From Gemmatimonadota bacterium (GTDB lineage: Bacteria; Gemmatimonadota; Gemmatimonadetes; Gemmatimonadales; GWC2-71-9), in the NCBI GenBank assembly GCA_039656555.1, contig JBDHLU010000005.1, forward strand, positions 4,242-68,241: a DNA stretch of 64,000 bases, written 5' to 3'. Both the position numbers and the translations under genes were made by a program. The notes beneath the pieces are model-generated. The model was not told the origin of the DNA, did no database searches, and worked only from the letters and a program-made list of their open reading frames with translations. How positions within the stretch are numbered: the first letter of the stretch is position 1; every line of letters starts with the position of its first letter. Below, one piece after another: positions 36,817 to 64,000 of this stretch.

Positions 36817-36825
36817 CTGCGATGT

Positions 36826-36886: not shown

Positions 36887-36897
36887 ACGTCGCTGTT

Positions 36898-38169: not shown

Positions 38170-38330
38170 AAGATCCTCTTCGGAATATTGCCCAAGACAA
38201 CCAATCTGTACTCTGGGATCTCGATTCAGCAATCGAGCGAATCCGAGCCGTTGCGGATTGCTCCACGGTCGCCAACCTTCCAAGGCATCCGACTGTCTTA
38301 CGGTATCGACCCCCTCCGAGGCGCTCTTGC

Positions 38331-46690: not shown

Positions 46691-47123
46691 TGATTGGGGT
46701 AAAAGAGTGTGTGCAGGGAGCGGTTTGTTGCGGCCACCGAAGCCCTTGAGGGTTCCTACCCCGTCGCATGTTGCGCACTTGGCCGGGCGCCTCCAACGCC
46801 GTCCCGCTCCGGCGCTGGGCCCAACCGAGTTGGCTTAGTTTCTCGGGGCGATCCCGGACGGCGAACTCGGCATACTTCAACACGGCCCTCGTGCTGCCGA
46901 CGAGGTCGTCGAGCGCCTCGTCTTTCATCGCGTGCTGCTCGCGAAACGCCGTCTCGGCGCCGACGGTCGCGGCGCGCGCTTGTGCGTAGCGGTCGAGCTT
47001 GGCCTGCAGCTCGGCCGGGGGTACCGGCGGCGTCGGAAAGTCCGCCGCCGCGTGTTCGAGCCCGTCAGCCACCAGCGCGGCAAGCGCGGCGATCTCGGAC
47101 TCGGTTTCGGGAAACTGGGCCAT
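46668..47123 (-). CDS. Hypothetical protein, probably 3'-truncated
   Basis: 151 aa. The N-terminal ~115 aa looks coding (MAQFPETESEIAALAALVADGLEHAAADFPTPPVPPAELQAKLDRY...LSQLGWAQRRSGTALEAPGQVRNM). The tail RRGRNPQGLRWPQQTAPCTHSF.. looks non-coding, and the last ~8 codons lie inside a REP-like copy. Confidence 0.45.
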   Translation of the reverse strand: MAQFPETESEIAALAALVADGLEHAAADFPTPPVPPAELQAKLDRYAQARAATVGAETAFREQHAMKDEALDDLVGSTRAVLKYAEFAVRDRPEKLSQLGWAQRRSGTALEAPGQVRNMRRGRNPQGLRWPQQTAPCTHSFTPISDEPNGP

Positions 47124-47152: not shown

Positions 47153-47545
47153 AGAAAACGGCAGGGAAGTGCTGAAACGGCAGCGCCGCGACGCGAAATG
47201 GCAGATCGCGAGTTCGAAAAGCCGAATTGGGAATTGCCAGACGTCAAATCCGAATTGCCAGACGTCAAATCGGAATTGCCAGACGCCAGATCGGAATTGC
47301 CAGACGCCAGATCGGAATTGCCAGACGCCAGATCGGAATTGCCGGACGCCAAATCGAAATTGCCAGACGTCGCATCGGAATTGCCAGACGGCAAATCGGA
47401 ATTGCCAGACGGCAAATCGGAATTGCCAGACGGCAAATCGGAATTGCCGGACGCCAAATCGGAATTGCCAGACGCCGCATCGGAATTGCCAGACGCCGGA
47501 TCGGAATTGCCGGACGCCGGATCGGAATTCCGATCGGGCGGATCG
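47153..47545. repeat. 21-bp tandem repeat array: 14 well-conserved units (47231-47524) flanked by degenerate units
   Basis: The consensus is GAATTGCCAGACGNNNNATCG. The variable tetranucleotides, in order, are TCAA x2, CCAG x3, CCAA, TCGC, GCAA x3, CCAA, CCGC, CCGG x2. Decayed copies with 21-bp phasing lie at 47153, 47174, 47195 and 47216, with a degenerate unit at 47525-47545. All six reading frames are largely open across the array. Confidence 0.95.
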
Positions 47546-47696
47546 AACGGGGCACGCATCGATCACGGGACCGCCCTCCCGATCATGACGGCGGTGTTCG
47601 CGGCGCCAAGCAGGCCCAACGCCGTCCAGTGGGCTCGTCAGCATGGTGTGCAGGCGATACCTTCGCATCGAGTCCCACGATCTCACGAGGCATCTT

Positions 47697-49160
47697 ATGC
47701 GTTCGCTGCGAATCCCCCTGTGCGTAGCCGTAGCTTCCTTCTCGCAATTGGCCGCCGCGCAGGAACCCGTTTATCACGACGTCATCGCGCAGATAAAGGC
47801 CGAGGGGCTGGAGCGCTCGCAGGTCATGGAGACGTTCAATGTCTTGACCAACGTGATTGGGCCACGGCTTACCGCAACGCCGGCGTTCAAGGCGGCGGCG
47901 GACTGGTCTGCCGCCCAGCTTGAGGCGTGGGGCATGGCGAATGTCCACTTGGAAGAATGGCCGTTCGGTCGTGGGTGGACGCTCGAAGGCCTCACGTTGG
48001 AGATGACGGGCCCGCGCTACTTCCCGCTATTCGGCTATCCGGAGGCATGGACACCGTCGACATCGGGTGAACTCGTTGGCGAGCCGGTGTACGTCGGCGA
48101 CAAGACCGCCGATCAGATTCGCGCGATGTCACTTGCGGGGAGAATCATCCTCACCGAGCCGCCGCAGCCCGCGTTCATCAAGAACGACCGCGAGCAACCG
48201 CTCGACGCGGCCGATGCCGTGCGTATCGGTGCGCCGCGACGCATCCGTAATCCGGGCGCAGTGAGTGGCCGCGAGTTGTCGGAACTGATGCAGACGGGTG
48301 GTGCGGGAGTAATTCTGCGACCGAACCAGGGTGAGCATGGCACCATCTTCGTGCTGGGGCGCAACTCGACGCCGAACGATGCCGTGCCGGTCATCGTGAT
48401 CGCCTCGGAGCACTACAACATGATCGTGCGCATGCAGGATGCCGGCGTGCCGGTCACACTCCGGGTGAACCTCGAGATCCAGTACCACGAAGCGGACACG
48501 AATGGTTACAACGTCATCGCTGAGATTCCCGGCACGGACCCCGATCTCAAAGACGAGATCGTCATGGTGGGTGCGCACCTCGACTCCTGGCACTCGGCGA
48601 CCGGAGCCACAGATAACGCCGATGCGTCCGCCTCAGCGTTGGAGGCGATGCGGATACTCAATGCAATAGGTGTTCAACCTCGGCGCACGATTCGGCTGGC
48701 GCTCTGGGGCGGAGAAGAGCAGGGGTTACACGGTTCACGCAACTATGTCGAGCGGCACTTTGTCGGTGACGCGAACGCCGAGGAGCGCGACAACTTCAAC
48801 GTGTACTTCAATCACGATCCTGGCCTGGGAATGATCTACGGTTTCTACTTGGAAGAAAACGAAGCCGTGAGACCGATCTTCGATGCGTGGCTCGAGCCGC
48901 TAAAGGACATCGGCGCGCGGGGCAACAGGATCGAGAAGATCGGAAGCACGGATCACGTGAGCTTTGTGCGGAACGGTCTTCTGGCTTTCAACACGCTGCA
49001 GGACTACAAGGATTACGACGTTCGCACCCATCACACGAATACGGATTTCTACGAGCGATTGAGCGAAGAGGAATTACAAGAGGGTGCGATCGTGCTCGCG
49101 ACGTTCTTGTACCACGCTGCGATGCGGGATAAGAAGATTCCGCGGGACTTGACGCCGTAG
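47697..49160 (+). CDS. Secreted M28-family aminopeptidase with PA domain
   Basis: Start at ATG 47697, giving signal MRSLRIPLCVAVASFSQLAAAQEP. Motifs ..VMVGAHLDSWH.., ..TDNADASA.., ..WGGEEQGLHGS.., ..STDHVSF... Confidence 0.85.
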   Translation: MRSLRIPLCVAVASFSQLAAAQEPVYHDVIAQIKAEGLERSQVMETFNVLTNVIGPRLTATPAFKAAADWSAAQLEAWGMANVHLEEWPFGRGWTLEGLTLEMTGPRYFPLFGYPEAWTPSTSGELVGEPVYVGDKTADQIRAMSLAGRIILTEPPQPAFIKNDREQPLDAADAVRIGAPRRIRNPGAVSGRELSELMQTGGAGVILRPNQGEHGTIFVLGRNSTPNDAVPVIVIASEHYNMIVRMQDAGVPVTLRVNLEIQYHEADTNGYNVIAEIPGTDPDLKDEIVMVGAHLDSWHSATGATDNADASASALEAMRILNAIGVQPRRTIRLALWGGEEQGLHGSRNYVERHFVGDANAEERDNFNVYFNHDPGLGMIYGFYLEENEAVRPIFDAWLEPLKDIGARGNRIEKIGSTDHVSFVRNGLLAFNTLQDYKDYDVRTHHTNTDFYERLSEEELQEGAIVLATFLYHAAMRDKKIPRDLTP

Positions 49161-49228: not shown

Positions 49229-52063
49229 GTGTCCATGATCGAACAGTTGAACGCCGGGTTGGAGGGTCGCTACGTCGTCGAGCGCGAGCTTGGCGCCGGT
49301 GGTATGGCAACCGTCTATCTGGCCCAGGATCTCAAACACCGTCGGCAAGTGGCGCTGAAGGTATTGCGGGAGGATGTGGCGGCCACCCTGGGGGCCGATC
49401 GGTTCCTGCGCGAGATCGAGATCGCGGCGGGTCTCCGCCATCCACATATCCTGCCCCTGTACGATTCGGGTACGGTTGGGAACGCGTTCTTCTACGTGAT
49501 GCCCGTGGCCGAAGGCGAATCACTTCGAGAACGGATCGATCGCGAGAAGCAACTCCCCATTCCCGATGCGCTGCGGATCGGGAGGGAGGTGGCGGATGCC
49601 TTGGCCTACGCGCACAGTCACGGCGTCGTGCACCGCGACATCAAGCCCGAAAATATCCTGCTCGAGTCCGGTCACGCGGTCATCGCTGATTTCGGGATTG
49701 CCCGTGCCGTCGATACCCATGGCGGCAACGTGACGCTCACCGAAGCGGGCATGAGCATCGGCACGCCGACCTACATGAGTCCCGAGCAGGCGAGCGGCGA
49801 ACGTGACGTCGACGGCCGGAGCGACCTCTACAGCTTGGCGTGCGTGGTCCACGAGATGTTGACCGGGGAGCCGCCGTTCACGGGCCCCACGGTCGAAAGC
49901 ATCATCCGGCAACACATCACGGCCGACCCACCCACGGTCACGGTGCTGCGCTCGACCGTCTCCGAGAAGGTTGCGTCGTCGATCGTAACGGCGTTGGCCA
50001 AGATCCCGTCCGACCGGTTCAGCACGGCGGCGGAATTCGGGGCAACGCTGGAAACCAGCGATGTGCGGCCGCCGACGATGGCCGTGCCATCGGCTCGGAC
50101 GTCAATGCGGAGGCCGGTCGCTTTGATGGCGGCGGCACTCGTCGTGGTTGCTGCGACTGCGGCATGGTTTATCACTCGCGATGGAGGCGGTGTAGCCAAC
50201 GGTATCGTCGAGCGAGACTGGATCCTCGTGGCCGCGTTCGACGGGTCCGCCGAAGACCATGAACGCGGCATGGCGCGGGAGTTCGTACGGACGGCACTCG
50301 ACCAATCGTCCATCGTCGTCACGATCTCCGATCAGGACATGCGCCGTGGCTTGGAGATGAGTGGGCGGCCCGATACTACGCGCGTCGACGCCCAACTTGG
50401 CCGTGAACTCGCCGTCCGGGCCAGCGTCCGCGCGGTCGTGACGGGGCAGATCGACCGGATTGGAAACACGTATCCCATCGTATTGCGCGTGATCGGCGCT
50501 GACTCGGGTGACGTCATCGTTTCCGAACGAGCTATTGCGCAGTCCGCCGACGACCTCATCTCGACGGTAGACGATGCCGTGCGGGGCATCCGAGAACAAC
50601 TCGGTGAGCGGCGATCCGCGATTCGGGCCAACCGCCCGCTCCGCCAGGTGATGACGCCGTCGTTCGAGGCGTACGAGAAGTTCGTGGAAATGGAAGCCGA
50701 GATGCGGACGACGGGCCGCCAGGGTCGTGCGGTCAATCTGTTGCGCGAGGCTCTGGTAATCGATCCCGAGTTCGCTTCGGCGCGGCTCGCTATGTGGGCA
50801 CGATTCATCAACCGGGGTTGGCAGGATTCCGCCCGCGCGGCCATCGAAGATGCGTTGGCGATTCCCGGACGGCTCACGGAGCTCGAGCGGATGCGCGCAC
50901 GCGCATCGTTGGCCTTGGTCGAGTGGAACGTGCCACGTGCGGCCCAAGCGTATGAAGAGTTGCTTGCTCGGTATCCCATGACGGCAGGGGCGCTTACGAA
51001 CCTTGGTGTGGCGGTGGGGCAGCTGGGACGCACAGAGGAGGCGTTGGAGATTTACCGGCGGGCACCGGATCCCTTTGGTACCAACACGATGAATCTCTGG
51101 AACAAGAGTGAGGCCCTGATGACCCTGGGGCGGTTCCGAGAGTTGGACTCGCTCATCGAGGTGATGCCGGAACAGTGGCAGGAAGGGCGGACGTCGGCGG
51201 CGTTGATTGCGGAACGCCGGTTCGATGCGGCCGACAGCATGCGGGCACAGGGCCTACGTGAAGATCCGCCTCGGAACGCCCAGCAGCGCGGTTGGGTGCA
51301 GTACAACCAGGCGATGGCCGGCATCGTCCGTGGGAGAGTCGAGAAAGCCGGCGCCAGTTTACAGGAGCGTGCTGAATTTGTAAGCGAGCAAGGATGGGAC
51401 GTTCAGGGTCGCGGTTTCTTCGAAGAATCGAAATTGATCCATTCCCTGAGCGCCGGACGACCGATCCCACCCTCTATGTTCACTCCGCAGGACACGAGCG
51501 TCGATGCCCAGTTGCTCTTTGGCGTGAGCGCGGCACTGAACGGCAATGAACGAACCGCGCGCGACATACTCTCGGCGGTCCGAGCGCGCGACGAACGAGA
51601 TCTCGCCTGGTACGGTGGGGGGCCGCTCGTGTTGGAAGCCGCGATCGCCGCCGGTAATGAGGATTGGGAAGAGGTGACGAACCTCCTCGGCCCCGCTGGC
51701 CATTGGAACTGGCCGTACTCGACCTTCCGGGGCACCAATTGGGCCATCGTCTCATGGCTCCTGTTGGGCGAGGGGTACGAGCAAACCGGCCAACTAGACT
51801 CCGCGGCAGCGTACTTCGAATTGTTGGGCACTCCCGGTGAGTACGTACGGCGTGATGACATCCAGCGTGCGGGTCTTACCTATTCGTTTGCGCACTTTCG
51901 CCGAGGTCGGATTCTCACGGAGCTGGGCCGAACTGAGAAAGCCCGCGAGGCGTGGTTGACGTTTCTAGACGCCTTCACGGACCCTGATCTCGACTACGAG
52001 TGGATGGTGACCGAGGCGAATGAGTCGTTGGCGCGTTTGGCGGGAGAGACGGTCGGCAACTAG
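49229..52063 (+). CDS. Membrane Ser/Thr protein kinase with TPR-like extracytoplasmic domain (paralog of 43468..46416)
   Basis: 944 aa, GTG start. GAGGMATVYLA...VALK, HRDIKPEN, DFG, SPE. TM VALMAAALVVVAATAAWFI. Helical-repeat C-terminus. Confidence 0.85.
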   Translation: MSMIEQLNAGLEGRYVVERELGAGGMATVYLAQDLKHRRQVALKVLREDVAATLGADRFLREIEIAAGLRHPHILPLYDSGTVGNAFFYVMPVAEGESLRERIDREKQLPIPDALRIGREVADALAYAHSHGVVHRDIKPENILLESGHAVIADFGIARAVDTHGGNVTLTEAGMSIGTPTYMSPEQASGERDVDGRSDLYSLACVVHEMLTGEPPFTGPTVESIIRQHITADPPTVTVLRSTVSEKVASSIVTALAKIPSDRFSTAAEFGATLETSDVRPPTMAVPSARTSMRRPVALMAAALVVVAATAAWFITRDGGGVANGIVERDWILVAAFDGSAEDHERGMAREFVRTALDQSSIVVTISDQDMRRGLEMSGRPDTTRVDAQLGRELAVRASVRAVVTGQIDRIGNTYPIVLRVIGADSGDVIVSERAIAQSADDLISTVDDAVRGIREQLGERRSAIRANRPLRQVMTPSFEAYEKFVEMEAEMRTTGRQGRAVNLLREALVIDPEFASARLAMWARFINRGWQDSARAAIEDALAIPGRLTELERMRARASLALVEWNVPRAAQAYEELLARYPMTAGALTNLGVAVGQLGRTEEALEIYRRAPDPFGTNTMNLWNKSEALMTLGRFRELDSLIEVMPEQWQEGRTSAALIAERRFDAADSMRAQGLREDPPRNAQQRGWVQYNQAMAGIVRGRVEKAGASLQERAEFVSEQGWDVQGRGFFEESKLIHSLSAGRPIPPSMFTPQDTSVDAQLLFGVSAALNGNERTARDILSAVRARDERDLAWYGGGPLVLEAAIAAGNEDWEEVTNLLGPAGHWNWPYSTFRGTNWAIVSWLLLGEGYEQTGQLDSAAAYFELLGTPGEYVRRDDIQRAGLTYSFAHFRRGRILTELGRTEKAREAWLTFLDAFTDPDLDYEWMVTEANESLARLAGETVGN

Positions 52064-52066
52064 CGG

Positions 52067-52133
52067 GAGAGGGCGCAGGACAAAGGTCGCAGGGCGCAGG
52101 GTTACATCTCTTCGTCCTCCGTCCTTCGCCCTC
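52067..52133. terminator. Imperfect GC-rich hairpin between convergent kinase genes
   Basis: The left arm is GAGGGCGCAGGACAAAGGTCGCAG. The right arm, reverse-complemented, is GAGGGCGAAGGACGGAGGACGAAG (19/24 pairing). The left arm also holds the direct repeat GGGCGCAGG x2. Confidence 0.35.
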
Positions 52134-52136
52134 TAA

Positions 52137-54836
52137 TCAGTTTCCCACTCTTTCCTTCAACTCCTCGAACCAGTTCTCCACGATGATCACTTCGGTCGGG
52201 CTGGCGTCGCTCGCAAACTGGAGAAACACGAATCGTTGAGCATCCGACGCAACGTCATACTGATGGCGATTGCCGGCCGTGACGAATTGGTCGACCGAGA
52301 ACAACGTGTTCTGGTCGGTCCATTGGAAGATCGACCCACTGGCACGGTCGATCGTCACGACCACTAGTTCGTTTGCACCGTTCCGGTAAAACAGTTCATC
52401 GCCCTTGGGCGACCATTGTGGTGCCTCGCCACCGGCCGTCGACAGCTGCTGCATCCACTCGTCCACGTTGGGAAACGGTCGCACGTACACCTCGTTGTTC
52501 CCGGACATGTTCGACATGTAGGCCAACCACTGCCCGTCCGGCGACAGCACGGGCATGCGTTCGGATGCATCAGTCGTGAGCAACGCCACCGGGGCGCTGT
52601 CGGTTCTCGACCGAACGGCATAGACGTCGGAGGAGCTCGTCTCCACGCGATACACGATCCATTCACCGTCGTTGGAGTAATGAACCTCCCACACCGGCGG
52701 CAGGTCGTCGATGGCGGTCAGGAGACGCTCGGCTTGCGAACTGCCGTCAGCGCGCTTGAAATAGATGTCGTTGCTGATACCACGATCGGAAACGAAGGCA
52801 AGCGCACTGCCATCCGGGACCCATGACGAGCGGAAATTGACGGACCCCTCGTGCGTGAGGATCGTGCTCGGCCCGCGGTCCAGCCGCTTGACCCAGAGGT
52901 GAAGGACGTTGTCCTGCGCAATCGTGATCGCGAGGCGGTCACCGCTGGGCGACAGTTCCGGGTAGCTCATCGCGCCAGACCAGTCGGGATCGATCACCGT
53001 GGTCGATCCGTCCCGCGTTACCCACACGGGCTGGACGTTGGCGGCGTACCCGGTGGCATAGATCAGGGTACCGGTCGCCGACACTGAAAGGTCAGCCGCA
53101 CCGGCAAAGCGCCCGCCAAGCCCTTCGGCCAAGGCCCGTGGGTCTCCGGTAAGCTCGAGATTGTCCTGATCGAACGGGCGCGCCATGAGGGTCCCATCGA
53201 TCGTGACGTACACCAGGTGTCCGGAGGTCGCATACACCGCGTATGTGCCGCGTACCAAGTATCGGTGTTCTCCGGTCTCGAGGTCGACCACGGCGATATC
53301 GCTATCCGCGAGGTTGTTTCCGTGTAGCACCTGAAACAGCACCCCTTTTCCGTTCGGAAGAGCGGAAGGCCACAGGTGGTCGATTTCGCCTCGCGTGCTA
53401 TCGATGCGCGTCACGATGTGGAGCGGTCCTCCGCCCCCGGCGGCCACTCGTACGAGACCGGGCCCCACACGCCCCGCACCCTGTGCCACGGCGTAGAGGT
53501 GTTGGCCATCTGGCGACCACGAGACGCCTTGAATATCCAACCCCGAATCCGCCGCCTCGATCGGTGGGCCGCCGACCAGTGATACAACCTGCACCACTGT
53601 GCCTGAGATTGCGGACAAGAACGCCACGCGCGAACCGTCCGGCGAAGCCTTCGGCGAGAATCCGCCCTCCGTTCCCAACAAAGGGGTCCCCGCCAGTGAG
53701 TTGCGGCTCCGCACGTACAACCGACCCGGGCCACCCTCATCCCCCACGTAGATCAGGCGGTCCCCGTCCGCAGTCAGCGTGAATCGGGACCCTATGAGGT
53801 TCTGGTCGATGGGATCGAAGTCCGGCAGCGACACATTGTAGCGCGAGACCGGCTGTGGTGGCTCCGCACGCGTCCACCCAATGATGGTCGTGACCAACAG
53901 GACGATAGCCAACGCCGAGACAGCGGCAAAAGCCCGCACAGACACGCCGGGAGCGGAACGCCCATCCACCGAGGTGGGCCCCGAAATCGCCGGTATCGTA
54001 AACGTCGCGTCGTCGAGCGCCGAGGCGAACTTCGCCGCACTCGTGAAACGATCCGCCGGGCTCTTCGCCAAGGCACGATTCACCGCCGCGTCGACGTTCG
54101 GTGGCACCATGTCGCGGGTCTGCGTAATGGGAGACGGGCGCTCCGAGAGAATCTTCGCGACGATTGCCTGCACGGAGTTACCGATGTGCGGTGGTTCGCC
54201 CACCAGCATCTCGTACGTCATCGCTCCGAGCGAGTAGATGTCGCTCCGGGCATCGATCTCGCGGTCACCGGTCGCCTGTTCCGGAGACATGTAGTGCGGC
54301 GTACCCATCGACAGACCGGTTTCGGTGAGTCGCGTGCCGCCCGCCTGACTCACGGCCAACGCAATTCCGAAATCCGCCACGACCGCCTGCCCGTCCTGCA
54401 TCAACACGTTCTCGGGCTTGATGTCTCGATGGACGACGTTGTGTCGGTGCGCATAATCGAGCGCCGCCGCCACCGACTTGGCGATCTGTACCGTGTCTTC
54501 CACCGAGAGCTGCTTCTCGCGATCCATCTTGTCGCGCAGCGTGTCACCCTCGACCAGTGGCATCACGTAGAACAAGAACCCTTCGGCCTCACCCGAATCG
54601 TACAGCGGCAGGATGTTCGGGTGCTGCAGGTTGGCGGTGACCTTGATCTCTTGCAGGAACCGCTCGCCACCGAGGATCGCGGAGAGCTCGGGTTTCAGGA
54701 TCTTGATCGCGACCTTGCGGTCGTGTTTCAGGTCGTGCGCGAGATAGACGGTTGCCATGCCGCCTTCGCCAATGTGACGTTCGATCTTGTAGCGGTCCGC
54801 GAGTGCGGTGGAGAGTCGGGAGGTTATTTCGGTCAT
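52137..54836 (-). CDS. Ser/Thr protein kinase with TM segment and C-terminal PD40/TolB-like beta-propeller domain (K1)
   Basis: 899 aa. GEGGMATVYLAHDLKHDRKVAIK, HRDIKPEN, DFG, SPE. TM AFAAVSALAIVLLVTTIIGW. Repeated PD40-type blades (..SPDGSRVAF.., ..WSPDGQHLY.., ..SPSGDRLAI.., ..LSPDGQWLAY.., ..WSPKGDELFY..). Confidence 0.9.
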   Translation of the reverse strand: MTEITSRLSTALADRYKIERHIGEGGMATVYLAHDLKHDRKVAIKILKPELSAILGGERFLQEIKVTANLQHPNILPLYDSGEAEGFLFYVMPLVEGDTLRDKMDREKQLSVEDTVQIAKSVAAALDYAHRHNVVHRDIKPENVLMQDGQAVVADFGIALAVSQAGGTRLTETGLSMGTPHYMSPEQATGDREIDARSDIYSLGAMTYEMLVGEPPHIGNSVQAIVAKILSERPSPITQTRDMVPPNVDAAVNRALAKSPADRFTSAAKFASALDDATFTIPAISGPTSVDGRSAPGVSVRAFAAVSALAIVLLVTTIIGWTRAEPPQPVSRYNVSLPDFDPIDQNLIGSRFTLTADGDRLIYVGDEGGPGRLYVRSRNSLAGTPLLGTEGGFSPKASPDGSRVAFLSAISGTVVQVVSLVGGPPIEAADSGLDIQGVSWSPDGQHLYAVAQGAGRVGPGLVRVAAGGGGPLHIVTRIDSTRGEIDHLWPSALPNGKGVLFQVLHGNNLADSDIAVVDLETGEHRYLVRGTYAVYATSGHLVYVTIDGTLMARPFDQDNLELTGDPRALAEGLGGRFAGAADLSVSATGTLIYATGYAANVQPVWVTRDGSTTVIDPDWSGAMSYPELSPSGDRLAITIAQDNVLHLWVKRLDRGPSTILTHEGSVNFRSSWVPDGSALAFVSDRGISNDIYFKRADGSSQAERLLTAIDDLPPVWEVHYSNDGEWIVYRVETSSSDVYAVRSRTDSAPVALLTTDASERMPVLSPDGQWLAYMSNMSGNNEVYVRPFPNVDEWMQQLSTAGGEAPQWSPKGDELFYRNGANELVVVTIDRASGSIFQWTDQNTLFSVDQFVTAGNRHQYDVASDAQRFVFLQFASDASPTEVIIVENWFEELKERVGN

Positions 54837-54938
54837 AAAAAGCGATTTAAGATTACAGAATAGAGAGCACAGAATTTAGATTGCCCCACACCACACCCGT
54901 TCTTAGATCTGTATTCTGTGATCTGAATTCTAAAATCA
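54837..54938. repeat. AT-rich 102-bp conserved inter-kinase spacer (copy 1), imperfect palindrome of GATYACAGA-type words
   Basis: aaaaagcgatttaAGATTACAGAATagagagCACAGAATttagattgccccacaccacacccgttcttagatctgtATTCTGTGATCTgaattctaaaatca. There are 92/102 identities with 57618-57719. The arms ...AGATTACAGAAT... and ...ATTCTGTGATCT... are inverted. Confidence 0.85.
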
Positions 54939-57617
54939 TCAGTTCCCTATCCTCTCCCGCAACTCCGTAAACCAATTGTCCACCACCACGACCCGATTTC
55001 CGGTCGACGCAGCGCGAAACCGGTTCATCAAGAACCGCTGACCGTCTGGAGCGATGTCGTACTCGCGAGCGAAGGCTTCGAATGCGTACCCCTGAGTACC
55101 GAACAACGGGGACTGCACACCTGCATTGAACGTGGGGCCCGGAATGATGTCGACTTGGATCAACTGTGCGTTCGCGTTCCGGTAGAACAGACGGTCTCCT
55201 CCGTTTGACCACAGCGGTTCGGCGCCGCCGCCACTGGAGACTTGCCAGCGGGCCTGATCGGTCGGGAATGGCCTGACGTACACCTCTGCCGCTCCCGACT
55301 CGTTGGAGACATAGGCGAGCCACCGTCCATCGGGGGAAAGCGCGGCCGCAGATTCGTTGAACGGCCCGGCAACGACGCCGAGCTCGGTCGTATCGCCGAC
55401 CCGTCGGGCGAAGATATCGCGCCCTGTGGGCGGCCCGTTCAACTGGTAGATCAGCCACTCGCCGTCACGAGAATAAAACGCTTGGACCACCGAACGTTCG
55501 TGATCGAGCACGAGATACGGTGCGGCGCTCCCGTCGGCTCGGCGCGCGTATACGTCGCCGTTCTCGCCGCGATTGGACAGGAACAGAATCTCCTGCCCAT
55601 CCGGGCTCCACGTCGGTCGGAAATTGCGACTGCCCTCGAAAGTCATCTTGGTCGTCGGTCCGCGGTCCAGCTGCTTGATCCATATATGTGTCCCATTGTC
55701 AACAACCTCGAGCGCGAGACGGCTGCCGTCCGGCGAGAGACTCCCGGGCCCGAAATTGCCGGTCCAGGTCGTGTCGACTGCCACGCTGACGCCTTCGCGG
55801 GTGGTCCAACTGATTTGGTCCGGGTCCTCGTCGACGAGGCCGGCCTGGTACATCAACGTGCCCGAGGCCGAAATGGCGATGTCAGACGTTCCCAGGGCCT
55901 CGACGCTGATGCCTTCCAGCAACGGCGTCGGCGGGCCGGTGAGTTCCATTCTATCGATGTCGAAGGGGGCCGCGACGAGCGAACCATCACCGCGAACGAC
56001 GATCAAGTGACCGGTCGGAGACCATCGAACCATCGAGCCCTGCATCAGGATGCGTTGCTCTCCCGTTTCGAGATCGAGCACAGCGATCTCCGACGTCTCG
56101 GCGTTGTACAGCTCGAGCTGAACCGTGAATACAACGCCACGGCCACCAGGCAGCGCATCGGGGAACGTGTGGGCGGCTTCGCCGCGAGTGGTATCCCGGA
56201 ACGTCACCGTCTCGATAGGTCCGCCCGTCGCCGGCATGCGCGACAACCCATCCACGACGCCCTGCCCTCCAAGGCCGGCGACAAAGTACAAGTACCCATC
56301 GTCGGCCCACGTCCCTCCGCCGCGCACGATACCCGAGTCCACCAGGGTCACTGGCGGCTCCCCACTCAACGAGACGATGCGGAGTGCCCTGGGCCCGGTG
56401 ATGAACGCGACGCGATTGCCATCGGGCGAGAAGAAAGGCTGATGCGCGCCCTCCCCCCCCGCGATGGGCTGCGCTTCCAACCGGTTGCGTTCTCGCAACC
56501 ACAGTTGCACGCCATCGTCGTTAGCTCCGGTATACACGAAACGCTTGCCGTCTGGAGAGATGGCGATGTTGCTACCGAAGTTGGTGACTAAACCCGCCTC
56601 GAGTTCAGGAACGTCGAGTTCGTACCGGATGACGGGAGCGGCTGGAGCCGGACTCGAACGCGTGAGTGCCCATCCTGCGGTCGCCGTCATGATGATTGCA
56701 ATTGCCGGCCAAGCGAAGCGCACGATCCCGGTTGAAGGCGTTGGTTCGGCGCTTGGGACACCAACAGTACTCGGCACCGTAAACCCGACGTTCGTGAGCG
56801 CGTCGGCGAACGTGGCAGCCGTCGCAAACCGATCCGCGGGCATCTTGTTCAATGCCTTGATAATCGCCGCGTTGATATGCACCGGGACGGTATCGCGCGT
56901 CGCGGTGACTTGTGGAGCTTTTTCCGTGATCACCTTGGCGACGATCGCTTGGGCGGACGACCCTTGGTAGGGCGGTTCTCCCGCGAGCATTTCGTACAGC
57001 ATGGCACCGAGGGAATAGATGTCACTCCGGGAGTCCAACTCGCGGTCGCCCATGGCCTGTTCGGGCGACATGTAGTGCGGCGTCCCGATCGACAAGCCCG
57101 TTTCGGTGATGCGTTGCCCGCTCGCTTGGCTCACGGCGAGTGCGATCCCGAAGTCCGCGATCATGGCCTGGCCATCGTGCAGGAGCACGTTCTCGGGTTT
57201 GATGTCCCGATGGATCACCCCCTGGCGATGGGCGTAGTCGAGTGCCGAGGCGATGGACCGCGTGATCTCCACTGCATCTTCGATCGACAATTGCTTTTCG
57301 CGGTCGATCTTGTCCCGCAACGTTTCGCCCTCGATGTAGGGCATTACATAATAAAGAAACGAACCGGCGTCACCTGAGTCGTGGAGCGGCAAGATGTGTG
57401 GATGCTGCAGGTTCGCCGTGACTTTGATCTCTTGTAAGAAACGCTCGGCGCCGATGACGGCCGCGAGTTCCGGTCGCAACACCTTCAGCGCGACCTTCCG
57501 GTCGTGCTTCATATCGTGCGCGAGGTACACGGTCGCCATGCCGCCTTCGCCGATGTGACGTTCGATGCGGTAGCGGTCGGCGAGGGCGGTGGATAGTTGG
57601 GAGGTTATTTCGGTCAT
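54939..57617 (-). CDS. Ser/Thr protein kinase with PD40/TolB-like beta-propeller (K2)
   Basis: 892 aa with the same motif set and architecture as K1. TM WPAIAIIMTATAGWAL. Confidence 0.9.
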   Translation of the reverse strand: MTEITSQLSTALADRYRIERHIGEGGMATVYLAHDMKHDRKVALKVLRPELAAVIGAERFLQEIKVTANLQHPHILPLHDSGDAGSFLYYVMPYIEGETLRDKIDREKQLSIEDAVEITRSIASALDYAHRQGVIHRDIKPENVLLHDGQAMIADFGIALAVSQASGQRITETGLSIGTPHYMSPEQAMGDRELDSRSDIYSLGAMLYEMLAGEPPYQGSSAQAIVAKVITEKAPQVTATRDTVPVHINAAIIKALNKMPADRFATAATFADALTNVGFTVPSTVGVPSAEPTPSTGIVRFAWPAIAIIMTATAGWALTRSSPAPAAPVIRYELDVPELEAGLVTNFGSNIAISPDGKRFVYTGANDDGVQLWLRERNRLEAQPIAGGEGAHQPFFSPDGNRVAFITGPRALRIVSLSGEPPVTLVDSGIVRGGGTWADDGYLYFVAGLGGQGVVDGLSRMPATGGPIETVTFRDTTRGEAAHTFPDALPGGRGVVFTVQLELYNAETSEIAVLDLETGEQRILMQGSMVRWSPTGHLIVVRGDGSLVAAPFDIDRMELTGPPTPLLEGISVEALGTSDIAISASGTLMYQAGLVDEDPDQISWTTREGVSVAVDTTWTGNFGPGSLSPDGSRLALEVVDNGTHIWIKQLDRGPTTKMTFEGSRNFRPTWSPDGQEILFLSNRGENGDVYARRADGSAAPYLVLDHERSVVQAFYSRDGEWLIYQLNGPPTGRDIFARRVGDTTELGVVAGPFNESAAALSPDGRWLAYVSNESGAAEVYVRPFPTDQARWQVSSGGGAEPLWSNGGDRLFYRNANAQLIQVDIIPGPTFNAGVQSPLFGTQGYAFEAFAREYDIAPDGQRFLMNRFRAASTGNRVVVVDNWFTELRERIGN

Positions 57618-57719
57618 AAGAAGCGATTTAAGATTACAGAATAGAGATTACAGAATTTAGATTGCCCCACCCCACACCGATTCTTAGATCAGCATTCTGT
57701 GATCCAAATTCTAAAATCA
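57618..57719. repeat. AT-rich 102-bp conserved inter-kinase spacer (copy 2)
   Basis: aagaagcgatttaagattacagaatagagattacagaatttagattgccccaccccacaccgattcttagatcagcattctgtgatccaaattctaaaatca. About 90% identical to copy 1, with the same length and the same position relative to the flanking stop and start. Confidence 0.85.
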
Positions 57720-60434
57720 TCAGTTCCCCATCCTTCGTTTCAGCTCTTCCGCGAAATTCTCGACGACGATCAGCTGTGGTGCGCTGGTGCCACCGGGTGA
57801 TCCGACGAAGACGAAGCGCTGATCGTCCAGGTCGACGTCGTAGTGCCGGCCGTTGGATCCCAGAAAGTAGGAGGCCACCGAAAAGAGGGTGCGTCGTTCC
57901 CCGAACGTGATCGCGTTGCCGCTGCGCGACACGGCAACTGACACGAGATTGAGGTCGCCGTTGACGTAGAACAACTCATCGCCGCTGTGTGACCACAGCG
58001 GCATGCGTCCACCATCGGAAGAGACCTGCCACATCCCGTCGAGTGTATTGGGGAACGGGCGCACCGCTATCTCGTCGCGACCGGTCTTATTGCTCTCGAA
58101 CGCGATCCACCGCCCGTCCCGCGAGATTTCCGCCACCTTTTCGTCGAACGAGGTCACGACGAGTTCGACGACTGCCGTGTCGACGCCCGGGCGATACCCA
58201 TGGATATCGCGTCCGCCCGTCGTGCCACCGATCCCGCCGGCGCGCAGCACGATCCACTCGCCCCCGGGACCCCAGAACGCTTCGGTGATACGCGCCTCGA
58301 GGTCCAGCAACAACTCGGCCGATCCGATGCCATCGGCGCGCCGTTGATAGAGATCGTAGGAGGAACCCTGCCTCGTCGACAAGAACGTCACCGACCGACC
58401 GTCCGGCGTCCAACGCGGCCTGAAGTTGCGGTCGCCTTCGAACGTCAGGCGGGTAGCGGGTCCGTCAGGGAGGTCCTTGATCCAAATGTCGGCCGTCTGA
58501 TCCTGCACGCGGAGCGCCAGACGGGTGCCGTCGGGAGAGAGAGACAGTCCGCCATTACCGGTGAAGGAAAAAGCCCAGTTTGGATCGAGGACCTGGGCAC
58601 GACCGTCGCGATCTACCCAATAGGCAGTCGACGTTGCCTGCCCGGGTTCGCCCTGGACGTATGTGAGCGTCCCGTTTCTCGATAATTCCAAGTCGACGGA
58701 ACCGGCGTTGTCCACCATAATCCCCTCGAACAGGGAAACCGCCGGACCGGTCAATTCGAGCGCGTCGGTGTCGAATGGAGCGGCGAGCAGCGCGCCGTCG
58801 GCTCGGACGAAGACGATGTGTCCCGAAGGCGAGTACACGGCGTAGATACCCTGCAGCAACGGTTCATGCCGCCCCGTCCTGACATTCAGCACACCGATCT
58901 CCGCGGTACCGAGATCGAGGCCGTGCCGAATGGTGATCAGCACACCCTTTCCGTTCGGGAGTACATGCGGAAAGACGTGTCCGTCCTCACCGGCAGTCGT
59001 GTCGGGGACGGAGGCCGGCTGTGGGGTGCCTCCAGTTTCGGGTATTCGCAGAAGCGGACCAGTCTGATTGGCCACGTAGATGAACCCGTCAGGCCCCCAC
59101 GAGAGTCCCCATCGATTGAATCCGGAATCGGCAAGCGCGACGGGCGGCTCGCCGCCCAACGAAACGATCTTGAGCGTAGCGGGGTTGAGCGTGATGAACG
59201 CGATGCGTTCACCGTCGGGCGAGAACGTTGGTGTCGTCGCGCCTCCGGTTCCTGCGATGACCCGCGCGTCGAGTTGATCGCGCTCGCGCACGTAGATCTG
59301 GGACAGGTTCGGTCCAAGCCCGAGAAATGCCAGTCGCGAATCGTCCGGTGCGAGTGCAATGTTGCCGCCTAACCGCTGAACCAGGTCCACCGACTGATCC
59401 GGATCGGCAGGCATCATGCGGTACCGGGTGACCGGCTTACTGGACTCTGGTTGCATCCAACCGAGCACCGCCGCCACCGACGCGATTGTGGCGACGGCTG
59501 CGAACGCCTTCGTCATGCGGTTCCAAGTTGTGCCAGTCCCCGAAGTCCCCGGTGCCGAGATGCCCATGGCGGTTGCCGGCATCGTGAGCGAGGTGTTAGA
59601 TAGCGCCTCCGTAAACTGAGCTGCCGTGTTAAACCGATCCGCAGGCAGCTTCTCGAGCGCCATGTGAATTGTCGCGGCCACGTGCGGTGGTACCGTGTCC
59701 CGCGCCGCGGTGATCAATGGCGGTTTCTCAGTGATGACCTTCGCGACGATAGCTTGGGCTGTACTCCCCGTATACGGCGGATCTCCCGCCAACATTTCAT
59801 AGAGCATCGCGCCGAGGGAGTACACGTCCGTGCGAGCATCCAACTCACGGTCGCCCATGGCCTGCTCGGGCGACATGTAATTCGGCGTCCCGATCGACAA
59901 CCCGGTTTCGGTAATGCGACTGCCCCCGGCTTGGCTCACGGCAAGGGCGATCCCGAAATCGGCGATCATCGCTTGCCCGTCCTGCATCAACACGTTCTCA
60001 GGCTTGATGTCGCGATGGATCACTCCCTGCCGGTGCGCGTAGTCGAGTGCGCTACCCACGGCCTTCGCGATATCCAGCGCTTCACTGATGCCGAGTTGTT
60101 TTTCTCGATCGAGCTTGTCGCGGAGCGACTCGCCTTCGACGTACGGCATGACGTAGTAGAGCAGCATGCCGCTCGCATCCGAGACGGTTCCGCTGTCATG
60201 GAGCGGCAAAATGTGGGGGTGCTGCAGGTTGGCCGTGACCTTGATCTCGTTCAGGAAACGCTCGGCGCCAATCACCGCGGCCAGTTCCGGTCGCAACACT
60301 TTCAATGCGACCTTGCGGTCATGTTTGACGTCGTGGGCGAGGTACACGGTCGCCATGCCGCCTTCGCCGATGTGGCGCTCGATGCGATAGCGGTCGGCGA
60401 GGGCGGTCGAGAGTTGGGAGGTGATCTCGGGCAT
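57720..60434 (-). CDS. Ser/Thr protein kinase with PD40/TolB-like beta-propeller (K3)
   Basis: 904 aa from ATG 60434 (MPEITSQLSTALADRYRIERHIGEGG), by homology with the K1/K2 N-termini. The 12 extra upstream codons in the track ORF differ from K4 only by non-synonymous changes, which suggests a non-coding leader. Confidence 0.85.
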   Translation of the reverse strand: MPEITSQLSTALADRYRIERHIGEGGMATVYLAHDVKHDRKVALKVLRPELAAVIGAERFLNEIKVTANLQHPHILPLHDSGTVSDASGMLLYYVMPYVEGESLRDKLDREKQLGISEALDIAKAVGSALDYAHRQGVIHRDIKPENVLMQDGQAMIADFGIALAVSQAGGSRITETGLSIGTPNYMSPEQAMGDRELDARTDVYSLGAMLYEMLAGDPPYTGSTAQAIVAKVITEKPPLITAARDTVPPHVAATIHMALEKLPADRFNTAAQFTEALSNTSLTMPATAMGISAPGTSGTGTTWNRMTKAFAAVATIASVAAVLGWMQPESSKPVTRYRMMPADPDQSVDLVQRLGGNIALAPDDSRLAFLGLGPNLSQIYVRERDQLDARVIAGTGGATTPTFSPDGERIAFITLNPATLKIVSLGGEPPVALADSGFNRWGLSWGPDGFIYVANQTGPLLRIPETGGTPQPASVPDTTAGEDGHVFPHVLPNGKGVLITIRHGLDLGTAEIGVLNVRTGRHEPLLQGIYAVYSPSGHIVFVRADGALLAAPFDTDALELTGPAVSLFEGIMVDNAGSVDLELSRNGTLTYVQGEPGQATSTAYWVDRDGRAQVLDPNWAFSFTGNGGLSLSPDGTRLALRVQDQTADIWIKDLPDGPATRLTFEGDRNFRPRWTPDGRSVTFLSTRQGSSYDLYQRRADGIGSAELLLDLEARITEAFWGPGGEWIVLRAGGIGGTTGGRDIHGYRPGVDTAVVELVVTSFDEKVAEISRDGRWIAFESNKTGRDEIAVRPFPNTLDGMWQVSSDGGRMPLWSHSGDELFYVNGDLNLVSVAVSRSGNAITFGERRTLFSVASYFLGSNGRHYDVDLDDQRFVFVGSPGGTSAPQLIVVENFAEELKRRMGN

Positions 60435-60515
60435 CGGACTAAGATGGGGTTCGTAACGGGGTTTCGCCATCCACGGCTGAAGCCGCGGCTCGGCTAGAAG
60501 ACTGCCGCTAGCTTA

Positions 60516-60638
60516 CTCGTCGAGCGTTGGCGGCCGGGCGACGAGCGGCCCGAGACAGTTGACGGCGAGCTGCGCTGGGAATTGAGCGTAGGAGTGTCGG
60601 GAGCGTTGGACGTCGCGAAGCTTTTCAAGAATCTCTAG
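60516..60638 (+). pseudogene. 3' remnant of a Uma2-family endonuclease gene
   Basis: It translates as ..ERWRPGDERPETVDGELRWELSVGVSGALDVAKLFKNL*. This parallels the last ~40 codons of the intact Uma2 gene (..ERWCIGNERPEIVDGELRWELSVGVSGVVDVAALFEKL*, 63856-63975). No 5' part is present. Confidence 0.7.
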
Positions 60639-60690
60639 CTCCGGCCAGCAAATCTCAGGTTTGTAATCTGTAATCTAAGATCTCGAATCA

Positions 60691-63327
60691 TCATCGCCCC
60701 GTCGTCATCTCCCGTATGATTTCCGTCCAGTTCTGAATCCAGATCAAACCCCTCGCCCCCTGGCCACCCTCTTGGTCGATGATCAGAATATCTTCGCCGT
60801 TGGGATGGATGTCGTAGTTGGGCGCAAGATTGTCTAGGTCGGTAACCGTTCCTCGAGACACACGCGAGGCAATGCGGAACCCGGAGTCCACCGATACTGT
60901 GGAAGCGATGAGCGTATTCGAGCTGACGAAGTACAGCTCGGCGCCGTCGGGAGACCATCGCGGAGCCCTGCCGCCCTCGGTCGATACTTGGTAGTGGCCG
61001 CCCTCGCCGGTCGTCGCCACCACATAGATCTCGTTGCTTCCGGATCGATCGGAGGTGTAGGCCAACCAACGCCCGTCTGGAGAAATCTGCGCCTCCCATT
61101 CATCGAACTCGGACTCGAGAACCCATCGTGGCGTCGAGTCGCCCAACGTAAGGAACCCTATATCCACAGTGCCGTTGCGGTCCGCCACGATCGCCAGCGT
61201 CTGGCCGTCCGGGAACCACGACTGGGGGTAGGCTTCGTAGTCAGACACGAGCAGGCGCTCGGCCGTGCCGCTCCCGTCCGATGGCTTCCAATACAGTTGA
61301 CCGACCTCGTCATTTCGGTCGCTCGAGAAGACAACGCGACTGCCGTCCCGCGTCCACACCGGCGCACGATTGCGAGTGCCTTCCGCCGTGAGGTTGGGCA
61401 TCGTGCCCTGGTCGATATCGAAGATCCAAATGTCGACGCGGCTGCCGACGTCCGAGAAGACGAACGCGACGCGCCGGCCGTCTGGTGAAAAGGTGGGGTT
61501 TTCCAGATTGCCATCTTGCGGCAGCTCGAGGGTCGTTGATCCGTTGGGGCCCACAAGGGCCAAGACCTCGGCCCTACTGCCGACCCCGGGCTGATAGGCC
61601 AAACCGCCTTCGGCCGACAGGGCGAACTCTCCGAGGCTGGGCCCAGCCAATCGCAGCCCGTCGAGAATGGCCATTGCCTGACCCGTGGTGCGCTGGGCAC
61701 TGGGATCGAACGGTTGGGCCAGGAGCGAACCATCCGCGCCCGAGAACACCAGATAACCGGAGGCGTACCTCGCGTATGTGCCAAACCCAATCGTGTCGAT
61801 GCTACCACTCTCGAGATCCACGACGACGATCCGAGCCTCTGCAGGACTACTACCTGCCACTCGGGCCAGCGTTGCCACTCCCCCAGGGAGCGCCGATGGA
61901 TGGATCAAACGCATGTCCGCCGGGGTCGGCACCGGAGTCGCTACTCCGCCGCCGGCCGGCACGGTATGCAACGAGTTGTTGTCCGAGAAAATTATGACGT
62001 CGTTGTCACCCCAACTGGCGCCCTCCGCTCTAGCAATCTCGAATATAGGCACCGGTGGCCCACCGGTCATCGGGACCTTCCGAATGCGACCGTCGGAATA
62101 GAATCCCAACCAGCGTCCATCCGGCGAAAAGAACGGAATCGACGCGTCGTCGGTACCGGGGATCTCTTCGGCCTCCAGTTGCCCAAGTCGCCTTCGGTAC
62201 AGCGGCGAGCGACCTTCACCGCCTCCACCACCCACGAAGACCATCCACTCGCCGTCCGGTGAGAGCGCGACCGTTGGGCCGCAGCATCTGCTATAACCGA
62301 GGACACCTTCGGGTGCGGGAACCAGAAAACGCGTCAGCCGAATTTCTGGGGTGCTGGTGGTCATGCGGCCGCCGAGAAACACGACAGTCAATACTAATGC
62401 CGCTCCAAGGAGGAGTAGTGCCGTAGATTTTCTCGATCGCGTCGCGACCGGTATCGATTCCGCAGGCATCGTCGCAGTCGACGGAATCGTGAACGCCGTG
62501 TTCGTCAACGCGTCCGCAAATGTGGCCGCCGTACTGAACCGATCGGCCGGCATCTTGTTCAACGCTTTGATAATCGCGGCGTTGATGTGTCCGGGGACCG
62601 TGTCTCGCGCGGCCGTAACCGGTGGTGCCTTCTCGGTAATGACCTTGGCCACGATCGCCTGCGCCGAGCTGCCTTGATAGGGCGGCTCACCCGCGAGCAT
62701 CTCGTAGAGCATCGCGCCAAGAGAGTACACGTCGCTCCGCGCGTCGAGTTCACGGTCGCCCATCGCCTGTTCGGGCGACATGTAATGCGGCGTCCCGATC
62801 GACAAACCCGTTTCCGTCAGGCGTTGACCGCTCGCATGACTCACGGCGAGGGCTATCCCGAAATCCGCGACGAGCGCTTGGCCGTCGTGAATCAGGATGT
62901 TCTCGGGTTTGATGTCGCGATGGATCACGCCTTGCCGGTGCGCGTAGTCGAGCGCCGAGGCAATCGATCGCGTGATGTCGATCGCGTCCTCGATCGCGAG
63001 TTGCTTTTCACGATCGAGTTTGTCGCGCAGCGTATCACCCTCGATGTAGGGCATGACATAATAAAGGAAAGAGCCCGCGTCACCCGAATCGTGGAGCGGG
63101 AGGATATGCGGGTGCTGCAAGTTCGCCGTGACTCTGATCTCCTGCAGGAATCGCTCGGAGCCGATGACGGCCGCAAGCTCCGGTCGCAAGACTTTCAAAG
63201 CGACCTTACGGTCGTGTTTGAGGTCGTGGGCAAGGTACACGGTCGCCATGCCCCCCTCGCCGATGTGGGACTCGATCTTGTAGCGGTCGGACAGGGCGGT
63301 GGAGAGTTGGGAGGTTATTTCAGGCAT
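60691..63327 (-). CDS. Ser/Thr protein kinase with PD40/TolB-like beta-propeller (K4)
   Basis: 878 aa from ATG 63327 (MPEITSQLSTALSDRYKIESHIGEGG). The kinase domain is nearly identical to K2 by eye. TM ALLLLGAALVLTVVFLGG. PD40-type blades (..LSPDGEWMVF.., ..FSPDGRWLGF.., ..FSPDGRRVAF.., ..ISPDGRWLAY.., ..WSPDGAELYF..). Confidence 0.85.
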   Translation of the reverse strand: MPEITSQLSTALSDRYKIESHIGEGGMATVYLAHDLKHDRKVALKVLRPELAAVIGSERFLQEIRVTANLQHPHILPLHDSGDAGSFLYYVMPYIEGDTLRDKLDREKQLAIEDAIDITRSIASALDYAHRQGVIHRDIKPENILIHDGQALVADFGIALAVSHASGQRLTETGLSIGTPHYMSPEQAMGDRELDARSDVYSLGAMLYEMLAGEPPYQGSSAQAIVAKVITEKAPPVTAARDTVPGHINAAIIKALNKMPADRFSTAATFADALTNTAFTIPSTATMPAESIPVATRSRKSTALLLLGAALVLTVVFLGGRMTTSTPEIRLTRFLVPAPEGVLGYSRCCGPTVALSPDGEWMVFVGGGGGEGRSPLYRRRLGQLEAEEIPGTDDASIPFFSPDGRWLGFYSDGRIRKVPMTGGPPVPIFEIARAEGASWGDNDVIIFSDNNSLHTVPAGGGVATPVPTPADMRLIHPSALPGGVATLARVAGSSPAEARIVVVDLESGSIDTIGFGTYARYASGYLVFSGADGSLLAQPFDPSAQRTTGQAMAILDGLRLAGPSLGEFALSAEGGLAYQPGVGSRAEVLALVGPNGSTTLELPQDGNLENPTFSPDGRRVAFVFSDVGSRVDIWIFDIDQGTMPNLTAEGTRNRAPVWTRDGSRVVFSSDRNDEVGQLYWKPSDGSGTAERLLVSDYEAYPQSWFPDGQTLAIVADRNGTVDIGFLTLGDSTPRWVLESEFDEWEAQISPDGRWLAYTSDRSGSNEIYVVATTGEGGHYQVSTEGGRAPRWSPDGAELYFVSSNTLIASTVSVDSGFRIASRVSRGTVTDLDNLAPNYDIHPNGEDILIIDQEGGQGARGLIWIQNWTEIIREMTTGR

Positions 63328-63426
63328 CGGACTAAGATGGCGTTTGTAACGCGATTTCGCCATGTGGCTGCTCGGCCATGCAGGCATGCGTTGCGAACCT
63401 CGGCCGAGGAAGGTCAGATTGTGGGT

Positions 63427-63975: not shown

Positions 63976-64000
63976 GTCCCGCCCACAGTTCCTCGGTCAC

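Follow-up and report, generated by a model that had tools for sequence, protein, structure and literature searches.

Repeats built of seven-nucleotide units have been described in several bacterial groups. In Xanthomonas there are about 185 arrays of the unit GGGAATC per genome, with 70 to 75 as convergent pairs, and in a comparison of two species the arrays retained their type but differed in length and sequence (Rehm et al. 2015, PMC4692102). More generally, among long simple-sequence repeats, those with heptanucleotide units are the most numerous in the majority of genomes, and polymerase slippage has been proposed as their source (Mrazek 2007, as summarized in PMC4679880). Direct repeats of TAACTGA lie just upstream of starts lacking a Shine-Dalgarno (SD) sequence in Beggiatoaceae, cyanobacteria, and Bacteroidetes (MacGregor 2015, PMC4679880). 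As far as the accounts in these sources go, no function is established for any of the three types (PMC4692102, PMC4679880). A further point of comparison is provided by the REP/BIME sequences of enterobacteria and the REPINs of Pseudomonas, imperfect intergenic palindromes that are often found after stop codons and between cistrons (PMC3116915).

We compare with these systems two spacers, E1 and E2, that separate tandem kinase genes of a Gemmatimonadota bacterium; the whole stretch of DNA analysed, 64 kb in length, is referred to as the window. Like the Xanthomonas repeats, the spacers are intergenic and consist of tandem 7-nt units in convergent arrays able to form a stem-loop, as is often the case there, and the type of array (single or inverted pair) is preserved despite changes in length and sequence, as we find between the window and a related genome. 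The phylum differs, however, as does the word: that of the spacers (NNNNAGA/AGATTAC) is AT-rich and far more degenerate, whereas that of Xanthomonas is G-rich, with a G-quadruplex proposed. With Mrazek's long simple-sequence repeats and the cyanobacterial STRR heptamers, in the summarized accounts of them, the spacers share a dominant period of 7, an intergenic location, and a proposed origin by slippage; those accounts concern direct arrays, for which neither the inverted hairpin layout nor the filling of a gap from stop to start is a defining feature. As with the TAACTGA repeats, for which a post-transcriptional role is suspected (PMC4679880), the heptamer arrays end a few nucleotides before an SD-less start, but TAACTGA is a fixed word in 2 to 6 direct copies, and the spacers have variable words in an inverted pair. 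The spacers resemble REP, BIME, and REPIN sequences in being imperfect palindromes after a stop, and REP serves as our working model for the effect of such a hairpin on mRNA. REPs are nonetheless 20 to 40 nt long, not 7-periodic, of one genome-wide consensus, and RAYT-linked, none of which is shown for the spacers; no RAYT transposase is present among the 10 proteins scanned in the window.

Contiguous 7-bp units in direct and inverted orientation also make up the heptad operators (WATCACW) bound by the pSM19035 omega repressor, a ribbon-helix-helix protein. Some spacer units (GATCACA) resemble this heptad and the layout is similar; omega operators are, however, sequence-specific for one such protein, while the spacer words vary across units and elements. 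We regard both the omega-type operator and a HutP-like NAG-N4 RNA site as analogies only, because word diversity argues against one binding specificity, and an integron attC site was rejected, there being no GTTRRRY core and no cassette context. A full-text literature search on the repeat words of the spacers returned nothing relevant. What is new here is an inverted heptanucleotide array in a new phylum, with a new AT-rich AGA-type word; the kind itself is known but unexplained. The reading that we favor overall, at a probability of roughly 0.55, is that the spacers are decayed inverted heptamer arrays that have been made alike by concerted evolution and that would place a REP-like hairpin on the upstream message.

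Inverted heptanucleotide arrays between kinase genes

Four tandem genes, all on the minus strand, encode Ser/Thr kinases fused to beta-propellers of the PD40/Tricorn type: K4 (60691-63441), K3 (57720-60470 as called, with the start probably at 60434, giving 57720-60434 from MPEITSQ), K2 (54939-57617), and K1 (52137-54836). Kinase homologs that carry names are from Gemmatimonadota, mostly Gemmatimonadales. Two further kinase genes lie on the plus strand just upstream of the array, and beyond K4 there is a Uma2-family gene in divergent orientation. The region upstream of K3 (60435-60648) contains a remnant of about 125 nt from the 3' end of a Uma2 gene, with about 430 nt deleted, whose intact counterpart is the Uma2 gene upstream of K4 (region 63325-64000); it also carries a promoter-like block ending CATCTTAGTCCG before the ATG, as at K4. 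The presence of Uma2-derived and promoter-like DNA upstream of both genes indicates that the K3/K4 duplication included upstream DNA. Elsewhere in the window, tandem repeats at 46435-46561, with units of 35 and 46 bp that each occur in about two copies and match at 90-95%, span the 3' end of the kinase gene at 43468-46416 and the DNA just downstream.

Spacer E1 (54837-54938, minus strand) extends from the K2 stop to the K1 ATG and spacer E2 (57618-57719, minus strand), with the same layout, from the K3 stop to the K2 ATG; both begin at the TGA of a TGATGA, at homologous junctions. An earlier sequence-only reading of this DNA had described the two as equally long, nearly identical, AT-rich palindromes, and direct comparison bears this out. 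Both are 102 bp, they are identical at 92 of the 102 positions, and their GC content is 36.3%, compared with 61.3% for the window, the lowest-GC 60-nt stretches of which lie inside E1 and E2. The words AGATTACAGAAT and ATTCTGTGATCT and a C-rich core are located where that reading had placed them, and the palindrome is real, with 31-nt arms that are 77% complementary in two registers 7 nt apart. It also held that the downstream kinases lack an SD sequence, and on direct reading none is visible in AAATCGCTTTTTATG or AAATCGCTTCTTATG. The 7-nt periodicity of the spacers and the related copies described below had escaped it.

On the coding strand, E1 runs from TGA through a 5' arm, a 17-nt G-rich core, a 3' arm, and TTTTT to ATG. 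The 5' arm (54901-54935, minus strand) is made of five NNNNAGA units (TTTTAGA, ATTCAGA, TCACAGA, ATACAGA, and TCTAAGA); the core or loop (54884-54900, minus strand) reads ACGGGTGTGGTGTGGGG and corresponds to the C-rich core of the plus strand; and the 3' arm (54842-54883, minus strand) comprises six inverted units (CAATCTA, AATTCTG, TGCTCTC, TATTCTG, TAATCTT, and AAATCGC), the first five of the form NNNTCTN and the last degenerate. Only the AGA/TCT core is well kept in each unit. Five AGA cores at exact 7-nt spacing are present in both arms of E1 (54901-54931 in the 5' arm, with the 3'-arm run at 54850-54880) and in the 3' arm of E2, while two of the five are broken in the 5' arm of E2. Runs of at least four AGA at this spacing are confined, within the window, to these elements, and none occurred in 50 shuffles; Tandem Repeats Finder reports period 14 at 57626-57663 and period 7 at 60662-60676.

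The inverted arms of E1 (54844-54881 and 54900-54937, 77% complementary) form a long, imperfect, bulged, and AU-rich hairpin that starts at the stop codon and reaches to within 5 nt of the ATG. Coding-strand folds of the two spacers have energies of -24.3 and -24.4 kcal/mol (z-scores of -2.1 and -2.6), and the z-scores for the opposite strand are -4.9 and -4.1. Like described inverted heptanucleotide arrays, the spacers are intergenic and have head-to-tail 7-nt units in convergent arrays able to form a stem-loop; each consists of two heptanucleotide tandem arrays, inverted relative to one another and decayed.

The spacers belong to a small family in this genome with the shared terminus GCGATKTAAGATYACAGA. 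The word AGATYACAGA occurs eight times in the window against an expectation of 0.11, with all occurrences at four sites, which hold three full elements and one half. The third full element (36816-36896, strand unassigned) lies between a convergent permease gene (34378-36816, plus strand) and gene 36898-38283 (minus strand). It has the 18-nt terminus in common with E1 and E2, to which its overall identity is 64-68%, and, though built in the same way, it is a much better hairpin than the spacers, with 36-nt arms 81% complementary (-38.7 kcal/mol, z of -7). The half-element (60649-60690, minus strand) directly follows the K4 stop with the units TGATTCG, AGATCTT, AGATTAC, AGATTAC, AAACCTG, and AGATTTG; it is homologous to the 5' arms of E1 and E2 (67% identical) and has no inverted partner and no significant fold. 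In addition, a GC-rich, approximately 7-periodic hairpin (52064-52136, strand unassigned; -37.1 kcal/mol, z of -5.1) lies directly after the K1 stop, before a convergent kinase-TPR gene. Thus, K1, K2, and K3 are each directly followed by a hairpin, and K4 by half of one.

Two other repeat arrays lie elsewhere in the window. At 33986-34041 there is a direct array of about eight CCTGCAT/CCTACAT heptamers (GCAGGAT/GTAGGAT on the minus strand), lacking an inverted partner and placed about 40 nt upstream of a minus-strand M28 peptidase/PDZ gene (32701-33954). At 47230-47529, 14 head-to-tail copies of a 21-bp unit, GGAATTGCCAGACGCCAAATC (92% matches), end in the palindrome CGCCGGATCGGAATTCCGATCGGGCG and lie in the divergent gap between gene 46668-47123 (minus strand) and an M28 peptidase gene (47643-49160, plus strand).

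Origin of the identity between the spacers

The coding DNA next to the spacers is far more diverged than the spacers themselves, as had been judged by eye. K1, K2, and K3 share protein identities of only 51-56%, with synonymous sites saturated, and along their full length the flanking paralogs have a four-fold-site identity of 0.36-0.42. When the two junctions are compared without gaps, identity is 43-70% near the ends of the upstream genes (within the final 150 nt, from -150 to -30 relative to the stop), rises to 87-97% from about 20 nt before the stop, and remains high across the spacer and for about 110 nt into the downstream coding region before it drops; this extension into the genes was not part of the sequence-only reading. 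That reading had inferred constraint on the spacers, and had named synonymous identity as high as that of the spacers as the mark of simple recent duplication. Synonymous identity is about 0.4, against 0.90 for the spacers, and simple recent duplication of the genes is therefore ruled out.

The inference of constraint itself fares less well when a relative is brought in. The L002 contig (ENA ERZ21271434) is syntenic, with Uma2 followed by several kinase genes, and its orthologs, assigned by C-terminal domain, have protein identities of 84% (K2), 79% (K3), and 75% (K4); a broken K1 ortholog lies further along, and gene order differs from that of the window. Four-fold identity between window and L002 orthologs is merely 0.37-0.48. 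The 94-bp spacer between K3 and K2 in L002 (9907-10000) contains five NNNCAGA units (TTGCAGA, ATGCAGA, GTGCAGA, ATGCAGA, and TCTCAGA), a core, and five units of the CAATCTN type (CAATCTG, AAAGCTC, CAATCTC, CAATCTC, and CAATCGC), followed by TGT and ATG. It thus has the same architecture as the window spacers but is only 64% identical to either of them, which is no better than the 64-68% seen for the nonorthologous family member at 36816-36896; the type of array is kept, and sequence and length are variable. Selection that holds 90% identity across the old split of K1, K2, and K3 should also hold it across the younger species split, so that the 64% observed disfavors purifying selection at the sequence level. 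The comparison of spacers across genomes draws on this one informative relative, which leaves some room for lineage-specific selection. No such element is present at the other L002 junctions, including that downstream of K2, or at the K2 relatives in L003, L005, L206, and L207; among the listed matches of a search of metagenome contigs with K2 there are only paralog-level relatives (37-53% identity).

The 5' ends of the kinase genes behave similarly. Over its first 60 nt of coding DNA (57558-57617, minus strand), K2 has an identity of 0.88 with K1 and 0.87 with K3 but only 0.73 with its ortholog, and the corresponding stretch of K1 (54777-54836, minus strand) lies in the high-identity block common with K2; in L002, three paralogs compared over these 60 nt have mutual identities of 0.87-0.92. 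All four window paralogs have TCC as their sixth codon, where three L002 paralogs have GGC. In the remainder of the kinase genes, by contrast, orthologs are far closer than paralogs, as illustrated by DNA identity over the C-terminal two-thirds (0.77 for K2 and its ortholog, 0.51 for K2 and K1). That the 5' ends are alike within each genome, and not by orthology, fits concerted evolution better than constraint. We infer that the 90% spacer identity is most likely due to concerted evolution or gene conversion and not to selection for the precise sequence. The event, either ectopic gene conversion or a duplication of the junction, would have taken in the spacer and, probably, 60-110 nt at the start of the downstream kinase gene, at a time after this lineage and its nearest sampled relative had separated; the identity would then require no purifying selection on the precise spacer sequence, and the heptamer arrays themselves are thought to arise and change through replication slippage.

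The contig of a sister strain, L210, is 99.88% identical to the window over 9.5 kb, with both spacers the same. Of the 11 differences, 10 fall within 47 nt of K2 (window 57329-57375, L210 1312-1358), nine of these ten substitutions being at third codon positions. This patch is conversion-like, a short recombination tract of the kind that ectopic conversion would make, and no donor for it is found within the window. Several observations speak against classical conversion of the spacers. No donor and no tract boundary was identified; homology upstream of the spacers extends over no more than about 20 nt, little for this process; and the identity of K1 and K2 over the first 70 codons (0.82) is no higher than that of K2 and K3 or of K2 and K4, whose upstream regions differ. 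The 10% divergence of the spacers implies that any conversion was not recent. We note that the 3' flank of K1 (52137-52150, TGATTAGAGGGCGAAGG...) begins like the 3' flank of the L002 K2 ortholog (12680-12700, TGATTAGGGCGCGAGGG...), a hint that K2 may formerly have been followed by the GC-rich hairpin at present located after K1.

A broader kind of repeat

To place the spacers, 185,579 reference genomes were scanned for AGAT-N3-AGA-N4-AGA-N4-AGA, a gap of 8 to 38, and TCT-N4-TCT-N4-TCT. At least 120 loci matched this pattern of 22 specified bases, whereas by our own arithmetic chance would give single digits. The matches listed are from Chloroflexota, Acidobacteriota, Bacteroidota, and others, and show clear inverted arrays such as (GCAGATT)n-loop-(AATCTGC)n. 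Outside the selected matches, the listed loci contain 132 period-7 segments, compared with 29 of period 8, at most 11 for periods 5, 6, and 9-13, and 70 for period 14, a multiple of 7. The spacers thus belong to a broad cross-phylum kind of heptanucleotide simple-sequence repeats in convergent pairs. The same strict threshold, applied to unselected Gemmatimonadota-type kinase loci (540 kb) together with the window and three related loci, shows no enrichment of period 7.

Among the listed loci, array units are very diverse, with about one-fifth of arrays strict inverted pairs, and this diversity argues against a single binding motif. Further inverted words in L006 to L125 include (GGTAGAC)n/(GTCTACC)n and (GAAGGAT)n/(ATCCTTC)n, mostly right after stops (examples are at L014 1161, L025 4694, L044 7700, L013 5691, L069 5570, and L084 785). 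A gene end lies within 60 nt of 74% of 106 elements, compared with 16% of random positions, and gene starts are near 47% compared with 30%; the commonest context is a stop, the element, and a start, all on one strand. Sense and antisense folds, whose comparison is a test of RNA-level selection through G-U asymmetry, do not differ in stability among 67 oriented elements (32 against 33; Wilcoxon p = 0.21). Homology between the flanking genes is seen for only 3 of 40 pairs, which counts against the sequence-only proposal of a recombination substrate driving the tandem expansion; what survives of that proposal is that the spacers and the adjacent 5' coding ends have apparently taken part in gene conversion. 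In L126, one of the unselected kinase loci, tandem-kinase junctions (6668-6754 and 9387-9499) are filled up to the ATG with period-9 and period-7 arrays, with four copies of GGGGGCAGC followed by CACGCAC-type heptamers, and three copies of CACCCCG.

Possible roles of the spacers

By analogy with REP sequences, the spacers would most likely serve to provide the message of the upstream kinase with a hairpin at its 3' end, although we consider this the weakest step in the argument. Such a hairpin would slow 3'-to-5' decay or partly stop read-through, and neighboring kinase genes would thereby be expressed unequally; the downstream kinases, having no SD sequence, may start from short-leader or leaderless transcripts. 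The suggestion of an RNA structure in the sequence-only reading holds insofar as the spacers can form an imperfect hairpin; this hairpin, however, has little stability (about -24 kcal/mol) and is lost in L002, where the spacer folds no better than shuffles (z of -0.9). A coding-strand z-score of only about -2, the lack of a U-tract terminator, and the lack of sense-versus-antisense bias across the wider set likewise speak against a functional hairpin. Searches of Rfam 15 gave no match at an E-value of 1 or below in 50000-64000 and none at the gathering score in the whole window.

Of the combined terminator and promoter module that had also been suggested, neither a canonical terminator nor a sigma-70 promoter came to light. 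A scan for intrinsic terminators found nothing in E1 or E2; the stem is AU-rich, with its U-run beginning 9 nt past it, unlike the short GC-rich stem and immediate U-tract of such terminators. No sigma-70 promoter (-35 and -10 hexamers at 16-18 nt spacing) matched on either strand of the spacers, the Gemmatimonadota promoter type being outside the models of the scan. A canonical bidirectional intrinsic terminator, a GC-rich 32-nt palindrome between an A-run and a T-run, is present elsewhere in the window (17850-17915), so the genome also uses ordinary terminators.

Possible, if doubtful, is that the spacers are a functionless by-product: heptamer slippage and template switching would have filled a tolerant gap, conversion would have made the copies alike, and the hairpin would have no effect on expression. 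The rapid evolution of the elements and their loss between relatives are as expected of such a product, as are the weak or decaying hairpins and the absence of strand asymmetry in the folds, and diverse words with a general excess of period 7 are consistent with a mutational origin, as Mrazek 2007 is summarized in PMC4679880. This explanation does not account well for the consistent siting right after stops (the 74% and 16% given above), for a hairpin following each of K1, K2, and K3, or for the architecture retained at the orthologous junction, and a hairpin of 80-100 nt in a transcript is unlikely to be wholly neutral.

It is unlikely that the spacers are a selected, kinase-specific regulatory module, that is, a promoter or array of operators controlling K2 and K1, perhaps together with a terminator for the upstream gene, under purifying selection in this lineage. 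The argument for it begins with identity well above that of synonymous sites and with an architecture kept at the orthologous junction, and draws further on the upstream regions of other kinase genes. K3 and K4 have no full element upstream but a common block, GGCGAAAYCSCGTTACRAACSCCATCTTAGTCCG, followed by ATG, which is recognizable upstream of L002 genes as well and is thus kept both between paralogs and between genomes. Such blocks, of the K3/K4 type CATCTTAG-N5-8-ATG, end in CATCTTAG, TATCTTAG, TAGCTTAG, or CATTCTGA 5 to 8 nt before the ATG in several relatives that lack the element, and the conserved box precedes SD-less kinase ATGs in the window (60435-60447), L002 (7176-7191 and 4318-4335), L003 (9977-9992), and L206 (about 98-114). 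Its placement would fit the -10 element of leaderless or very short-leader transcripts. The 3'-arm units TAATCTT, TATTCTG, and CAATCTA resemble the box (CATCTTAG, TATCTTAG, or CATTCTGA), so that the arm could be an array of -10-like boxes; of the arguments for a promoter-type or start-site role this is the strongest. No other promoter is visible for K1 and K2. The K3/K4 block, however, has been conserved from one genome to another, unlike the heptamer spacer: the identity of the orthologous spacer is at the background level for this repeat type, and the element is absent downstream of K2 in L002 and from the K2 relatives in four other contigs. The broken AGA cores in E2, the absence of a sigma-70 consensus, and the use of very diverse words within one locus by arrays elsewhere, which is against one binding protein, weigh in the same direction.

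Quite improbable, in our estimation, is a more general proposal, that 7-base-periodic palindromes after stops are a functional gene-boundary class across phyla of which the kinase spacers are maintained members, with the 3' arm doubling as a start-proximal array of -10-like boxes for SD-less kinase genes. They might then be a noncanonical terminator, an RNA-end structure, or a platform for a protein with a 7-nt register, and the class would extend over Gemmatimonadota, Chloroflexota, Acidobacteriota, and Bacteroidota.

Independent and recent insertion of a MITE- or REPIN-like miniature mobile element at both junctions can be largely dismissed, in spite of terminal inverted repeats, an AT-rich composition relative to the genome, an intergenic length of 80-100 bp, and a related copy with the common 18-nt terminus at an unrelated locus, since the two spacers, equal in length and at homologous junctions, coincide precisely in position, each extending from the TGA of TGATGA to ATG; near-identical copies occur only there, the unrelated-locus copy being 64-68% identical; no target-site duplication or flanking direct repeat is visible on direct reading; no transposase is present among ten proteins scanned; and the 5' arm stands alone after K4.

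The reading we prefer remains that of decayed inverted arrays, most likely made alike by concerted evolution. Noncoding identity above that of synonymous sites is usually read as function; here, gene conversion explains it better, and the spacer is thus not to be taken as a conserved regulatory site. Inverted heptamer arrays directly after stops are common in several phyla, and this kinase locus, where two copies and a half-copy can be set beside the single copy of a relative, would be a compact test case for them.
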